Source of the DNA: an uncultured Planctomycetota bacterium
GTDB taxonomy: Bacteria > Planctomycetota > Planctomycetia > Isosphaerales > Isosphaeraceae
Length of the DNA stretch: 64,000 nt
Direction: 5' to 3'
Assembly: GCA_963823665.1 (NCBI GenBank)
Contig: CAWGMQ010000004.1
Span: 2,016,001-2,080,000 of the forward strand
Shown piece after piece: positions 1,779 through 6,881 of this stretch; the first letter of the stretch is position 1, and each line of letters opens with the position of its first letter. The position numbers and the translations under genes were made by a program. The notes beneath the pieces are model-generated. The model did no database searches and was not told the origin of the DNA. It saw only the letters and a list, made by a program, of their open reading frames with translations.

Positions 1779-2750
1779 TCAGCAAGCGCATTCGAGCACG
1801 GCTCCCCGATTGGCTGCCCTCGTACAGAAGATCGACGATCGCGAGAGACCGAATCTCGCTCGTAGTCGATCCGCGAGGCGGTCAATCTCGGATTCCGGCA
1901 ATTCGCTGAACGCGTAAATCGTTGGACCCCATGAGCTCTGGCCCGTCCCCACAAAGCCCAGGGTTTTCAGCTCGTTCACGATGAGCGCGGCCTGAGGTGT
2001 GGCGTAGATTCCGCCTTGCGCAGGCGCAAAGGCTGCGCCGACGCGCTCTTGCAACTCACCCAGGCCGGCGCCGAAGGCTTCCAGGTCATGCTCGAGCACC
2101 GCAGGGAGGATCTCGATCAGCACGAGTCGGCAAAGCGCATCGACTGCATCTCGGGAGATAGGTGGCAGCTTGGCAAACGCGTATCTCTCGTCAGATCCAT
2201 GAAGGCCATTCACTCCGGGGGGCTGTACAATAAGGATCGGCCACTCTTCGGGAAAACTCGCACGAGCCAGTAGTGGAGGGATCTCGCCCTCACGCTTTCG
2301 GCCCCCGTCAACGATCAAGCCGCCGTGCTGAAATCCATGCAGACCGATGCCCGAACGAGCGCCCCTCCCGGTGAGATTGGCGAGTCCCGCCGGCCCTGGA
2401 TCAGGAAATCCGGCGAGCTCGAGCAGGCCGCGCGCAACCGCCAGCGAGAGCTGTGTGCCTAATCCGAGTCCGACGTGCTCTGCCGGGGCATGCCTGAGGC
2501 AAACTCGAGCCGGGGGCAGTACTCCTCCACATGCGAGCACGCGTTCACGAAGCCGGGCGATGATTGCCTCGAGCCGACCGGTCAGCGGTCCAAGGGCGCC
2601 CCATGATGGGGCACGCTCGACGGAAACCTCGACGCCCGGCGAGTCAATCATCAGCCCGATGCCGCCGAACTGCCGCAGGACCTCTGGCCCCCACCCGAAC
2701 AGACCGAAGTGCAGGCGGCTCGGCGTACGGATCTGAATAAACTCGCTCAT
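1779..2750 (-). CDS. mptG: Beta-ribofuranosylaminobenzene 5'-phosphate (beta-RFAP) synthase, GHMP kinase family
   Basis: N-terminal TPSRLHFGL, HVGLGLGTQL, GRGARSGIG, GGLIVDGG, GQSSWGPT; clustered with other H4MPT genes. Confidence 0.9.
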   Translation of the reverse strand: MSEFIQIRTPSRLHFGLFGWGPEVLRQFGGIGLMIDSPGVEVSVERAPSWGALGPLTGRLEAIIARLRERVLACGGVLPPARVCLRHAPAEHVGLGLGTQLSLAVARGLLELAGFPDPGPAGLANLTGRGARSGIGLHGFQHGGLIVDGGRKREGEIPPLLARASFPEEWPILIVQPPGVNGLHGSDERYAFAKLPPISRDAVDALCRLVLIEILPAVLEHDLEAFGAGLGELQERVGAAFAPAQGGIYATPQAALIVNELKTLGFVGTGQSSWGPTIYAFSELPESEIDRLADRLRARFGLSRSSIFCTRAANRGAVLECAC

Positions 2751-3361
2751 GGAGTCGGGGTCCGGCCAGGGTCCGGTAGAGCGCCCTGGCGCACGGCTGC
2801 ATCGCGAACGTGGCGGTGCAAGAGCGTGAAAGCCGCGCGCTCCCTCGGACCTCCGGTCTTGTCGACAAGAACAGCCAACTTCTGGAACTCCGCGAGCATT
2901 CCGTCGAGCGCGAGGAACTCGGTGCGAGTGGCCAGGATTGCCGCCTCGAGCACCGCGTGCCGAGCCCGATTAAAGCCGAAGAAGTCGCGCAGCCTGCCCT
3001 GAGCGGCGGTCTCAGCAACGATCATCGTGCGATCGTCTCGATCGTCCAGCTCGGCCACCCGAAACTCGTAATAACGGCACGCGTCCAGGAGAATTCGCCC
3101 GGCAATCACGTCTGCCGGCCGCGTGGCGGGTGGGGGTATAGCAGTAACTCCGATGGCTGTCTGAGCCAGGAGGAGCACATCGTCGGTGACGTGAAACACG
3201 CCCTCGCCGCGTGCTTTCAGATTTTGATAGGTTGTTGATGATCGGTAAGGACGAAGCTCAAATCTCGCCAGGTTCGTATCAGGGTCGACGCGCGGGCCCA
3301 TGGGCGCGATGTTCAGCGTGGCGTCATGGTTGAGCGTGGTCACGATCCCCTCGAGTATCAC
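2747..3361 (-). CDS. DUF447 family protein (Orf21-like, H4MPT biosynthesis cluster)
   Basis: ILEGIVTT...NIAPMGP, GFNRARHAVLEAAILATR; ATGA overlaps with both neighbours. Confidence 0.8.
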   Translation of the reverse strand: MILEGIVTTLNHDATLNIAPMGPRVDPDTNLARFELRPYRSSTTYQNLKARGEGVFHVTDDVLLLAQTAIGVTAIPPPATRPADVIAGRILLDACRYYEFRVAELDDRDDRTMIVAETAAQGRLRDFFGFNRARHAVLEAAILATRTEFLALDGMLAEFQKLAVLVDKTGGPRERAAFTLLHRHVRDAAVRQGALPDPGRTPTP

Positions 3362-4818
3362 GCCGGACCCTCGCCTTTTTCTTCGAGATCCTCGACCGCA
3401 GTGATCTTCTCGACCTGATTCTCCGTGCGCTCGGCACGCTCACGTTTGCGATCGAGTTGACTCGACTCCGGCTCTGTCAAAAAGCCCCAATCCATAGCTC
3501 GATCCTGGCGATAATTCTTGCTCAGCGTCAAGGCGGTTTTCGCCTTCATCATCTCATATCCCAGGTAGAAAGCGTGGGCCGGCTCCGTCACGCCCATCTG
3601 TTCGAAGAGCGCGAAAGGGTCGGTATCACTTCGCAATTGCTCCTTGTTCATCACCACGATCCTTCCCGCCTCGGCAAAGATGCGCCAGTTGGGATCACGG
3701 ATCCGCCGCTGAATCTCGGCCAAACTGTCGGCACCGAATTGCACGACCCGTGGATCGCGCAGCATGAGGAGGCGGGATTCCACATTCTTGGGTAGCGCGC
3801 GGTTCAGCACCGCGTAACGCGCGAGCCGCCGGGCAACGTCGATCTCACGCACTGACGACCGCGCCCAGTTGATCACCGCCGTCGTCAGGACAGCTCGAAT
3901 GGAGAGCTCCTGGCAAAACCCGATCAAGATCGTGTTGACGCCCGCGGAGTCGACGTCGGTGAGCTCGGTCAGATTCCCCGTTCCCATGATGATCCCTGAG
4001 TCAGGATAGCAACGGCGCACTTCGAGATAGCGGCCCAGCGACGCAGCGAAGCCAAAACCAATCGGTTCGAGAATCGGATCAACCCTGAATCTCACGCCTT
4101 GGCCGCTCAGGTACTCGATCGTGGCGTCAAGCCCCTCGAGTGAGCCAGGCTCGTCGGGAATCGCCACCACTTCGACACCCCAGTCAACGGCCTGCGCCCG
4201 ATTGGTTGCGTTCACGCTCAGGACAAGCTCGGCGCCCGCCGCGGATGCCGCCCGTGCCTCAATCGGGTTGAATGTGTCGATCGAGACGCGCATTCCCTGA
4301 TCTCGAAGCATCTTCACCGCACGATCCAACCCGGCCCAGGTTGTGCCCGGATCACAACCCAGATCGATCACGTCAGCCCCTTCATCATGAAGTTTTCTGG
4401 CCTGTCGAAGCAGTTCGTCGACTTCGAGCCGCGGGGCATGATTGATCTCGGCAAGGATCTCGATATCGTACGCACCATAGCCGCCCGCCTTGCCGCGCAC
4501 TTGCCCGAAATGACGAGGCAAGTCACGCAGGTCTTCCGGACCTGACTCAACGGGTACTCCCCGCGACCGCTCGAATATCGGTGCAAAATCACCCTGGCAC
4601 ATTCCCGGCAGAATTACCTTTTCGACACCCTCCGGCACATCAAGGTGACGGGCAACCCACTGCGGTGTCATGAGCGCCGCGACCGAGATCGGCAAAACAG
4701 CCACGTCGGCTCGAAAGCCAGCTCGAGGTGCCAGGTCAAGAAGCACCTGTCGAAGCGCAAATTCGGCCAATCGCCCGGTGACAAAAAGATAGCGAGGCGT
4801 GTCTTTCGCCTCCGTCAT
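3358..4818 (-). CDS. Dihydropteroate synthase-like protein (DUF6513 + pterin-binding + DUF4346-type C-terminus; Orf20-like)
   Basis: FVTGRLAE N-terminus, GADVIDLG, SIDTF, DPILEPIGFGF, GNLTELTDVDSAGVN, HAFYLGYE...YRQD. Confidence 0.85.
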   Translation of the reverse strand: MTEAKDTPRYLFVTGRLAEFALRQVLLDLAPRAGFRADVAVLPISVAALMTPQWVARHLDVPEGVEKVILPGMCQGDFAPIFERSRGVPVESGPEDLRDLPRHFGQVRGKAGGYGAYDIEILAEINHAPRLEVDELLRQARKLHDEGADVIDLGCDPGTTWAGLDRAVKMLRDQGMRVSIDTFNPIEARAASAAGAELVLSVNATNRAQAVDWGVEVVAIPDEPGSLEGLDATIEYLSGQGVRFRVDPILEPIGFGFAASLGRYLEVRRCYPDSGIIMGTGNLTELTDVDSAGVNTILIGFCQELSIRAVLTTAVINWARSSVREIDVARRLARYAVLNRALPKNVESRLLMLRDPRVVQFGADSLAEIQRRIRDPNWRIFAEAGRIVVMNKEQLRSDTDPFALFEQMGVTEPAHAFYLGYEMMKAKTALTLSKNYRQDRAMDWGFLTEPESSQLDRKRERAERTENQVEKITAVEDLEEKGEGPA

Positions 4819-5588
4819 CGTATGGCACCACCATTAACGCGAATGGATTGCCCGGTGAGGAACGCAGCCGAATCGCTGACAAGAAAGCACGCGACGGCGG
4901 CAACATCTTCCGGCGTGCCCCACCGCGATAGCGGAGTTTCTGCAATCACGCGGTCCTGCCAGGCTCTTGATGCGTGCTCGCCCCAGGCTGTCTTGATCCA
5001 TCCGGGGGCAAGCGCATTTACTCGTACCTTGGGCGCCAGGCTGAGCGCCAGACTGCGCGTGAACGACAGGATTGCACCCTTGGTTGCCGCGAACAACTCG
5101 CCCGAGTCACCCCCCATGCCCGTCTCCGCCTGATCCCATCCCATGGTGATGATTGAGCCGGACCCTTGCGAAACCATGCGACCACCGACGTCTCGACAGA
5201 GCCTGATCGTGGATGCAACGTCCACATACCACAGCCGGTCGAGCTTGGCATCAAAAGAGAGTTTTGCACCTTCTCCAGTCAGCGTATCGGCGCCAGCCAG
5301 ATGAAGCCAGGCGTCAAGGCCACCCCACGACGACCACGCGTCTTGCACCAGTGTTTCGCCTGCGGCGCGATCAGCCAGATCAGCCAGAAGCAATTTTGAC
5401 CTGCGTCCCATCTCGCGGACCAAACCGGCGACGTCCTCACCAGCCTCTCGAGAACTGCGCCCGTGAACGATCACGTCGGCACCTGAGGCTGCGAGCGCTA
5501 GTGCCACGGCCCGGCCAATGCCTGAAGTTGATCCCAGTACAATAGCCCGTTTCCCCCGTAAATCGATCATTGGAGGGCCAGACGTCAT
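4815..5588 (-). CDS. SDR family oxidoreductase with atypical active site (FxxxK); pteridine-reductase-like
   Basis: LGSTSGIG Rossmann motif, VIVHGRSS, VRVNALAPG, FLTGQSIRVNGG; start at 5588 or 5570; stop overlaps the DHPS-like start (ATGA). Confidence 0.85.
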   Translation of the reverse strand: MTSGPPMIDLRGKRAIVLGSTSGIGRAVALALAASGADVIVHGRSSREAGEDVAGLVREMGRRSKLLLADLADRAAGETLVQDAWSSWGGLDAWLHLAGADTLTGEGAKLSFDAKLDRLWYVDVASTIRLCRDVGGRMVSQGSGSIITMGWDQAETGMGGDSGELFAATKGAILSFTRSLALSLAPKVRVNALAPGWIKTAWGEHASRAWQDRVIAETPLSRWGTPEDVAAVACFLVSDSAAFLTGQSIRVNGGAIR

Positions 5589-5702
5589 TATTGCAAAACC
5601 TGCCCTGGTGGCTGGCCCTCGATCGCGATCGTCGCTTAGATTCGTCGTGTACTCTTCTGCGTCTCCTTGACGACATTCTACGAGTCCTGGTCGAGTCCGC
5701 AC

Positions 5703-6881
5703 ATGGGCAAGGTTCTTGCACGACTCAAGCAGACCGTGATGGCGCTCCGGACCGCCTGGTCCATTGCTGGCATCACACTCATTTTGTTGCTCTTCTTGGA
5801 AACCGGGCTTCGCATCGGTTTTGCGTTACGCGATCGACTGGTCGCGCCGGAGTCTCCCGATCGCCGAATTCTGGAAGAAGGCTACGAAGGAGCGACCTGG
5901 CCCAGGAAGCACTATCACGAAATCGAATCGCTCGAGGAACGCTGGCAACCGTATGTCTATTTCCGGCCCAAGCCATTTCGAGGCGAGACGATCGCCATCG
6001 AACCGGACGGTTTACGGGCCACCTGGCAGCCTGATCACTCATCGCGCCAAAATGCCGGCAAGAAAGCGGTCAAGTTACTCTTGCTGGGTGGCTCGTCGCT
6101 ATGGGGCTTCGGTGCTCGGGACGACCACACGATTCCGTCGCTGCTGGCGCGCAAACTTCATGAACGCGGACTGAATGTCGAGATCAAGAATCTCGCGGAA
6201 TTGGGATACGTCTCGACTCAGGAACTGATCGGGCTTATCGGTGAGCTTCAACAAGGATACCGCCCAGACTTCGTGATCTTTTATGACGGCGTCAACGACA
6301 CCACGTCAGCCCTGCTCGCCGGCGAAGCGGGCTTGACGACGAATGAATCGAACAGACAGCGCGAATTCAACCTCCTGCAATCGCCGCGCAGGCTCGCCGC
6401 CACGCTTGCTGTAAAGCTCCTGGTGGACTCAAGCTCTTACCGGCTCGCTCGATCCCTCAGGAGCCGGCTCAGCCGAACTGCAGCGATTCCGGGCGCACGT
6501 ATTCCCGATGATTCGATGCGCAGTCTGGCTCGCTCGGTGGTTGAGCGATACGCCGCAAACGTCCAGATCGTCGAAACGCTCGCCCATGGTTATGGTTTCC
6601 GCCCGTTGTTCTTCTGGCAGCCCACGATCTTTGACAAGGTCGAGCTCACCGCAGTCGAGCGCGACGAAGCGCTAAAATACGCATGGACCGAGCCTGCCTT
6701 TCAGATGGTCTACCAGAGGATCCGCGAGTCGCGCGTATTACAGGCCGATCCGGTTTTTCATGACTTGAGCCGGATCTTCGCAGACGAGAAGAAACTCACT
6801 TTCATCGACTACTGTCACACCACCGAAATAGCAAATGGCAACATCGCCGAAAAAATGGCTGCTGCAGTGCTCTCGCCTTGA
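5703..6881 (+). CDS. Membrane-anchored SGNH/GDSL hydrolase family protein
   Basis: N-terminal TM helix; LGGSSLWG (block I), FYDGVND (block III), IDYCH (DxxH). Confidence 0.75.
   Translation: MGKVLARLKQTVMALRTAWSIAGITLILLLFLETGLRIGFALRDRLVAPESPDRRILEEGYEGATWPRKHYHEIESLEERWQPYVYFRPKPFRGETIAIEPDGLRATWQPDHSSRQNAGKKAVKLLLLGGSSLWGFGARDDHTIPSLLARKLHERGLNVEIKNLAELGYVSTQELIGLIGELQQGYRPDFVIFYDGVNDTTSALLAGEAGLTTNESNRQREFNLLQSPRRLAATLAVKLLVDSSSYRLARSLRSRLSRTAAIPGARIPDDSMRSLARSVVERYAANVQIVETLAHGYGFRPLFFWQPTIFDKVELTAVERDEALKYAWTEPAFQMVYQRIRESRVLQADPVFHDLSRIFADEKKLTFIDYCHTTEIANGNIAEKMAAAVLSP

Follow-up and report, generated by a model that had tools for sequence, protein, structure and literature searches.

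Two folds are known for the reduction of dihydromethanopterin (H2MPT) to tetrahydromethanopterin (H4MPT). DmrA of Methylorubrum/Methylobacterium, which passages of PMC6193120 describe as NADPH-dependent and free of flavin, has a 135-aa dihydrofolate reductase (DHFR) fold; bacterial AfpA/DmrB and archaeal DmrX are FMN flavoproteins (PF02441; PDB 3wis/4mwg). Passages of PMC5020050 state that planctomycetes carry the H4MPT pathway, describe the gene for its last step as unrecognised in them, and call the role of H4MPT in non-methylotrophic planctomycetes enigmatic. Pterins can also be reduced by short-chain dehydrogenases/reductases (SDRs). In the pteridine reductase PTR1, an Asp-Tyr-Lys triad serves the first reduction, while the dihydro-to-tetrahydro step resembles DHFR and takes its proton from water (passages of PMC1618733); Tm8-3 is a FabG-like SDR with DHFR activity (passages of PMC3675766). 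Here we describe a 257-aa SDR encoded on the minus strand at 4815..5588 of a 64,000-nucleotide stretch (the window) from an uncultured planctomycete of the Isosphaeraceae. Comparative genomics indicates that this protein is probably an NADPH-dependent 7,8-dihydromethanopterin reductase that performs only the Tyr-independent, DHFR-like step. It would be a non-homologous stand-in for DmrA and AfpA/DmrB, belonging to neither family. No listing from the open-access literature searched names an SDR as a dihydromethanopterin reductase, although an earlier suggestion may exist in subscription works or in Figure S3 of PMC5103831, in which a Gemmatimonadetes cluster is drawn.

The SDR gene heads a minus-strand operon in which it is followed by a dihydropteroate synthase (DHPS)-like methanopterin gene (3358..4818; DUF6513, Pterin_bind and DUF4346), a DUF447 protein gene (2747..3361, GTG start) and the beta-RFAP synthase gene mptG (1779..2750). 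The DHPS-like gene is known as orf20, the DUF447 gene as orf19 and the gene for 4-HFC-P synthase as orf22. Domain and model matches confirmed this arrangement, which a first-pass annotation had read from the sequence: the RFAP synthase scored 148 bits against TIGR00144, over the model cut-off, and the orf20 product 153 bits against TIGR00284, under the cut-off of that model. The same annotation had described three consecutive ATGA overlaps. There are indeed three overlaps of four bases, but they are ATGA only at the SDR stop (4815-4818) and at the start of mptG (2747-2750), the middle one being GTGA (3358-3361). The SDR is translationally coupled to orf20 in the window. A second in-frame start candidate for the SDR is a GTG at 5702; the ATG at 5588 agrees with homologue N-termini and places the Gly motif at residue 19, its commonest position in 52 close homologues. 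The SDR is single-copy in the 16.5-Mb genome (92% complete), where its next paralogue shows 34% identity, and mch and an ftr-like gene lie ~40 kb away.

The family to which this SDR belongs, here called the Trp-family or 'Trp-at-Ser' subfamily after the residue that replaces the catalytic Ser, follows Mch closely. With a family hidden Markov model threshold of E<=1e-70, the Trp-family and Mch matched the identical 27 of 301 Planctomycetota genomes (the window's genome and an even draw of 300 others), and 274 had neither. Among 201 genomes of the Rokubacteria-containing phylum (the phylum of genome G310), Mch was found in 30 and the Trp-family in 10; all 10 were Mch-positive, and the family occurred in none of the 171 Mch-negative genomes. 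All 10 of these members carry the Tyr and adjoin orf20. Fourteen loci outside Planctomycetota, among the matches listed, stood under titles naming Gemmatimonadetes, Rokubacteria, Acidobacteriota, Gammaproteobacteria and Enterobacteriaceae. A contig scan with a generic pattern gave 15 family members among the 80 matches listed, a sample rather than a census (L054 was recognised by score only, its motif being unmatched, and L109 is frameshifted). A metagenome scan with a Tyr-bearing query gave one relevant locus of 33 (L200, an SDR adjoining orf20), and a plasmid search gave no Trp-family member among the best 8 of 463 matches (best E 7e-36). The Trp-family is not confined to planctomycetes. The proposal in the first-pass annotation of a new SDR-type H2MPT reductase in planctomycetes has strong comparative support from Mch (27/27 versus 0/274), from exclusion and from gene position.

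The exclusion concerns genomes with either of the known reductases. AfpA was called from a full-length match to TIGR02699 at E<=1e-21, the cut-off of the model itself being dropped because true bacterial AfpA scores 79-100 bits, below it; one AfpA so called was checked against PDB 3wis/4mwg, the DmrB structure (E 2e-48). AfpA/DmrB was found in none of the 43 family genomes, nor in 9 further ones: TIGR02699 gave partial matches at E values of at least 7e-7 in 41 of the 43, and no match in the window's genome and in genome G566. A DmrA orthologue was likewise found in none of the 43, the weak matches falling on folA coordinates. A control set of 401 genomes from G309's phylum contained 18 with Mch, namely 17 random ones and G309 itself; G313 brought the total to 19. 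Ten of these 19 Mch-positive proteobacteria had AfpA only, six DmrA only and three the SDR only; none had two of them and none lacked all (for the 17 random genomes the counts were 10, 6 and 1). The three SDR genomes matched at E<=1e-89 and all other genomes at 1e-55 or above; with most candidates scored, the Trp-family was absent from all 16 Mch-positive proteobacteria with AfpA or DmrA. DmrA in the six genomes is a second DHFR-fold gene, of 135 aa, whose cluster is named dihydromethanopterin reductase in the three of the six looked up. Occurring in H4MPT users only in these surveys and complementary to the other Dmr enzymes, the Trp-family is distributed as a dihydromethanopterin reductase would be. 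Since it is present where the carrier is used and both known enzymes are absent, the SDR looks like the missing enzyme that completes methanopterin in planctomycetes and in several other soil bacteria. The first-pass annotation had counted a canonical dmr gene in the genome as evidence against its idea, and neither AfpA/DmrB nor DmrA was found in the window's genome. Of its three flavoproteins, none of which matched TIGR02699, one was judged UbiX-like and two CoaC-like by eye, from sequence and neighbours. Near-duplicate CoaC-like flavoprotein genes lie ~10 kb apart on contig C12 of this genome (L006 near 161 kb, L007 near 172 kb), each beside a large secreted-protein gene, one with an in-frame TGA.

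This complementarity also bears on the idea that the SDR acts at a different reduction in the making of H4MPT or methanofuran. One such step of the H4MPT pathway opens the ribofuranosyl ring of the RFA-P arm reductively to ribitol. A role of this kind would lead one to expect the same co-occurrence with Mch and the same position beside the RFAP synthase and DHPS-like genes, and an active site that lacks Tyr but has conserved acids might be apt for ring-opening chemistry. All producers need this step, however, yet the family is absent from the 16 AfpA or DmrA genomes, and its distribution complements that of two unrelated enzymes with a single function in common, H2MPT reduction. We consider this role unlikely.

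Gene order agrees with H2MPT reduction. AfpA lies immediately before orf20 in 10 of 10 AfpA genomes, which is the slot of the SDR in the window, and annotated Azoarcus and Phyllobacterium records show the same order (among plasmid records, 35 had orf20 and 27 AfpA). Of the 27 planctomycete loci, 12 have the SDR at most ~650 bp upstream of orf20; so do 11 of the 14 loci from other phyla (again among the matches listed) and all 10 from the Rokubacteria-containing phylum, G310 being counted in both of the latter sets. The three exceptions among the 14 are L048, where a pterin-4a-carbinolamine dehydratase gene comes next and the contig then ends, and two gammaproteobacterial loci that are unlinked from orf20 although their genomes hold Mch and orf20. 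The SDR is unlinked from orf20 in three gammaproteobacteria, and in G566, where it is located elsewhere, the slot before orf20 is empty. Because orf20 lies outside the 1.5-kb flank of the SDR in 15 of the 27 planctomycetes, the co-occurrence with Mch is not mere carriage in one cluster. Clusters around the SDR in other phyla contain RimK-like, CitG, PTPS, hydantoinase-like and kinase genes, as well as genes for 4-HFC-P synthase, pterin-4a-carbinolamine dehydratase, pab and PQQ-dehydrogenase. The gene-neighbourhood and co-occurrence comparison with dmr genes that the first-pass annotation had proposed thus links the family to Mch, separates it from AfpA and DmrA and places it in a shared slot. 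Orthologues that keep Tyr or lack linkage had been named there as grounds for doubt; Tyr is kept in 22 of 117 distant members, and some members are unlinked from orf20.

Several observations concern these neighbourhoods in their own right. The gammaproteobacterial members L051 and L055 lie outside the C1 cluster, between genes for a family-2 glycosyltransferase and a protein-L-isoaspartate methyltransferase. Several Planctomycetia loci (L022, checked with Pfam, L023, L042 and L200) have a gene for an ArsR-family regulator close upstream of the SDR, divergent to it in L022, L023 and L042. A Rokubacteria methanopterin cluster encodes HPPK fused to a FolE2-type GTP cyclohydrolase (L052:2463-3920). 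On Azospirillum brasilense plasmid NZ_CP012916.1 (L145) the slot before orf20 holds a kinase gene, not afpA; across Azospirillum plasmid records, AfpA was found in 2, orf20 in 10 and DmrA in none, and the Azospirillum reductase may lie on the chromosome or be of a different type.

The SDR gene and orf20 are often separated by a gene for pterin-4a-carbinolamine dehydratase (L043:5262-5621, L045:10807-11163, L052:10873-11250, L018:2386-2727 and others). This arrangement, seen in Gemmatimonadota, Rokubacteria, Acidobacteriota and several Planctomycetota loci, is a hint that oxidised methanopterin may be repaired. The SDR might then mainly be a quinonoid-dihydropterin reductase resembling DHPR, which repairs oxidised H4MPT together with the dehydratase and leaves de novo reduction to DUF447 or to the separate FolM-like SDR that the window's genome encodes (see below). 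Such a dehydratase gene is missing from the operon in the window and from the operons of a second SDR lineage described below, however, DHPR uses a Tyr, and a repair-only role would leave the exclusion from AfpA and DmrA genomes unexplained. A main role in repair therefore appears improbable to us.

Next to distribution, the active site gives an indication of chemistry. SDR superfamily membership is clear (PF13561, 166 bits; Rossmann fold, GX3GXG, ~250 residues), and an AlphaFold model reached a pLDDT of 96.5. Its best VIA structural match was 4jro (Z 34.2, rmsd 2.1, 241 residues aligned); fold matches of this kind, to generic FabG-like SDRs, say nothing on substrate, and a structure database search found no solved structure of the Trp-family. 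When the SDR was aligned with FabG and FolM of E. coli, both taken from the K-12 record, three of the four residues of the classical Asn-Ser-Tyr-Lys tetrad proved to be replaced: FabG Asn110 corresponds to Asp123 (5220..5222, minus strand, as are all codons given here), Ser138 to Trp151 (5133..5138 together with Asp152) and Tyr151 to Phe166, while Lys155 is kept as Lys170 (F166-x3-K170, 5079..5093, in place of YxxxK). The motifs VIVHGRSS, MGWDQ and ELFAATK are present as the first-pass annotation had reported, and MGWDQ does replace the catalytic Ser, the aligned residue being Trp151 and not the Asp. FolM Asp139 aligns with this Trp as well; the 'PTR1-like' Asp of the earlier claim, Asp152, sits one column later and is not in the same position. 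The replacement of the catalytic Asn by Asp123 had been missed.

The alignment that the first-pass annotation had suggested for WD and FxxxK revealed strong conservation among close kin: W151, F166 and K170 occur in 120 of the 120 closest proteins (window protein included) and D152 in 118. A more distant set was built from 150 representatives at 50% identity, of which 145 have a residue at column 151 and 124 have Trp. Trp was used to define this set; Lys170 is shared by 117 of the 124, and the remaining 7 (fragments or out-of-frame ends) were dropped. Gly157 is invariant in the 117, Asp152 is present in 107 (otherwise N or S), and position 166 is Phe in 95 and Tyr in 22. This means that 'Tyr-less' is right for the window protein and most distant members but not for the whole family, and that Trp151 is its mark, as Tyr persists in those 22. 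Asp123 is found in 106 of 111 distant members, Asp101 of the family motif AGAD (5286..5288) in 98 of the 106 with a residue there, Trp197 in 94 of 112 and Gly23 in 75 of 79. The loop from the Ser to the Tyr position is two residues longer than that of FabG (15 in 109 of 117, versus 13). At the end of beta-2, where the absence of an acid followed by a basic residue points to NADP(H), the window protein has G43-R44 (5457..5462); since position 43 is acidic in 0 of 83 members and position 44 or 45 is basic in 55 of 83, a preference for NADP(H) is predicted.

These residues could fit a reductase that needs only the second step of PTR1. The SDR would perform the last step of (dephospho-)H4MPT synthesis and would re-reduce oxidised cofactor. 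Lys170 would position the nicotinamide ribose, hydride would pass to pterin C6, and water would protonate N5, as in DHFR and in the second step of PTR1. Reduction of H2MPT to H4MPT would require no oxyanion site made of Ser and Tyr; this would account for a Tyr that can drift to Phe and a Ser replaced by Trp with the Lys kept, the Tyr hydroxyl being dispensable. As a guess, Trp151 (with Trp197/Trp202) would stack on one of the two rings, pterin or aminobenzene, and the 2-amino/N3 edge would be bound, as by the conserved acid of DHFR, by Asp152 or by Asp101, the latter a candidate pterin-binding acid. The loss of three of four classical catalytic residues, together with translational coupling to orf20, might instead point to a protein without catalytic activity that binds NADP and serves the DHPS-like protein as a scaffold or sensor partner. 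The SDR is retained where it is unlinked from orf20 (the 15 planctomycetes and three gammaproteobacteria above), its distribution stands in for two enzymes, and conservation is strong at the Lys and at a group of pocket residues, all of which makes such an inactive partner extremely improbable.

The label 'FolM/PTR1-like', under which the SDR had first been described, did not survive comparison. The SDR shares 32% identity with E. coli FabG (E 7e-34) and 25% with FolM (E 6e-13). Its Gly-rich motif, G19-S-T-S-G-I-G25 (5514..5534), is GX3GXG as in FabG; according to passages of PMC1618733, PTR1 has GX3RXG, the Arg binding the NADP pyrophosphate. With the pteridine-reductase model NF006598 it scored 117 bits (cut-off 288), ranking 21st of the 29 SDRs of its own genome, and in a FastTree tree of 59 sequences, which contained FolM and no PTR1 sequence, the 36 Trp-family rows formed one clade apart from FolM. 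The SH-like support of this clade was 0.89, rising to 0.977 without the most divergent row and to 0.996 with five rows added; Tyr-bearing members are scattered through it, some near the base. Lacking the Arg, having Trp and not Asp at the Ser column and mostly lacking the Tyr, the SDR was rejected as a FolM/PTR1 protein on motif, identity, model rank and tree alike. What it shares with PTR1 and FolM is the SDR scaffold, the retained Lys, the predicted use of NADPH and the proposed reduction of a pterin. FabG is closest in fold and sequence, but the SDR differs in the replaced Asn, Ser and Tyr, in the longer loop and in lying outside fatty-acid operons, and scored 143 bits with the FabG model TIGR01830 (cut-off 297.75), which places it outside that family. 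Nor is it a TmpR (NF012208, 120 bits against a cut-off of 325, 24th of 25 listed models), although TmpR/Tm8-3 offers a precedent for dihydropterin reduction by a FabG-like SDR. Its domains are those of SDRs only, with neither the DHFR fold of DmrA nor the PF02441 domain of AfpA/DmrB/DmrX. As a 257-aa Rossmann-fold protein it is not homologous to DmrA, with which it would share the reaction, flavin-free NADPH dependence and a complementary distribution; with the flavoproteins it would share the reaction, and with AfpA/DmrB also the gene slot upstream of orf20. Named close homologues (73-75% identity) come from Isosphaeraceae/Isosphaerales, and the usual database label of the Trp-family is 3-oxoacyl-ACP reductase. 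Overall, the family is real, conserved and apparently unassigned, and probably represents a third structural type among the dihydromethanopterin reductases of bacteria.

The folate side of the genome raises the question of whether the SDR replaces FolA as dihydrofolate reductase, or serves folate and methanopterin as a broad pterin reductase. No DHFR-fold gene or folA was found in the window's genome (92% complete), which has thyX (ThyX), and 31 of 41 other family genomes show none; in planctomycete family f2, none was found in 16 of 16 genomes. FabG-like SDRs with DHFR activity, such as Tm8-3, do exist. The Trp-family, however, tracks Mch and not loss of folA, since a DHFR-fold gene is present in 11 of the 43 genomes with the family, and the 274 Mch-negative Planctomycetota lack the family. 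A FolM-like SDR, moreover, is encoded elsewhere in the genome (L014:1489-2271, minus strand; contig C3 near 1,332,650-1,333,400). It has the Arg, Asp and Tyr signatures, matches the pteridine-reductase model best, under its cut-off, and groups with FolM in the tree; it is probably the likelier folate reductase of this genome. Replacement of FolA by the SDR, or a broad role in both pathways, is thus very unlikely, and the SDR may have a side activity on dihydrofolate.

A second SDR lineage occupies the slot before orf20 in other genomes. In G310's phylum, 20 Mch-positive genomes have neither the Trp-family nor AfpA, and in all five that were examined (G719, G720, G722, G723, G759) orf20 is immediately preceded by a different SDR and followed by DUF447, at once or after one gene, and then by mptG (SDR at L249:11428-12174 and L251:6197-6955, both minus strand, and in L243-L247). 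No DmrA was found in these five genomes. The second-lineage proteins have Ala at the Ser column, keep Tyr and fall outside the Trp clade. TmpR (NF012208) was the first or second model for the two proteins scanned, at 206 and 209 bits against the cut-off of 325 and near their FabG scores, which leaves both outside the TmpR family; the resemblance is suggestive and not an assignment. The second lineage is a candidate independent recruitment. To us it is an evenly balanced proposition that dihydromethanopterin reductases arose from SDRs on two independent occasions: once as the Trp-family (Planctomycetota, Gemmatimonadota, Rokubacteria, Acidobacteriota and some Gammaproteobacteria) and once as TmpR-like SDRs in other Mch-positive members of the Rokubacteria-containing phylum. 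Between them, the two would then be the principal enzymes of H2MPT reduction among H4MPT users of these phyla, and the Trp-family would rely on DHFR-like, water-mediated chemistry on a FabG scaffold, with the Ser/Tyr/Asn machinery of SDRs given up altogether.

A number of points weigh against a dihydromethanopterin reductase, or against the generality of the patterns on which it is based. Divergent members could be missed in 'negative' genomes, because only 8 (Planctomycetota) or 13 (Rokubacteria-containing phylum) candidates were scored per genome, and many of the surveyed genomes are incomplete metagenome-assembled genomes. Sixteen of the 27 planctomycete positives belong to one family, and since kin are not independent, Fisher P values were not used. 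Two of the three SDR-only proteobacteria had been preselected for the SDR, only G566 coming from the random draw. DmrA and AfpA occur together on Phyllobacterium plasmid NZ_CP104968.1 and, according to passages of PMC6193120, in Azohydromonas, so that exclusion is not a law even among known enzymes. The comparison of the second lineage covers 5 of the 20 genomes. The nearest structures are plain FabG/ketoreductases, no pterin reductase appeared among the matches listed (50 VIA-align entries and the Foldseek rows), and the pterin-binding signatures of PTR1 are missing from the SDR. Finally, DUF447 may be a redox partner encoded in the same operon.

Within the window, the operon is flanked by two plus-strand genes in which no link to the pathway was seen: a convergent gene for a GH130-family glycoside phosphorylase (292-1758) and a divergent gene for an SGNH/GDSL-like protein (5667-6881). 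A promoter and terminator scan gave results at chance level.

If the SDR is a dihydromethanopterin reductase, the folds known for this reaction, DHFR and flavoprotein, would become three, and the label '3-oxoacyl-ACP reductase' that the family now bears would be corrected. The SDR would be a natural example of such an enzyme functioning without the canonical catalytic residues, and a flavin-free NADPH enzyme for engineering H4MPT pathways. For planctomycetes, it would fill a stated gap, the gene for the last step of H4MPT synthesis, and would offer a single-gene knockout target for probing the role of H4MPT in these bacteria.

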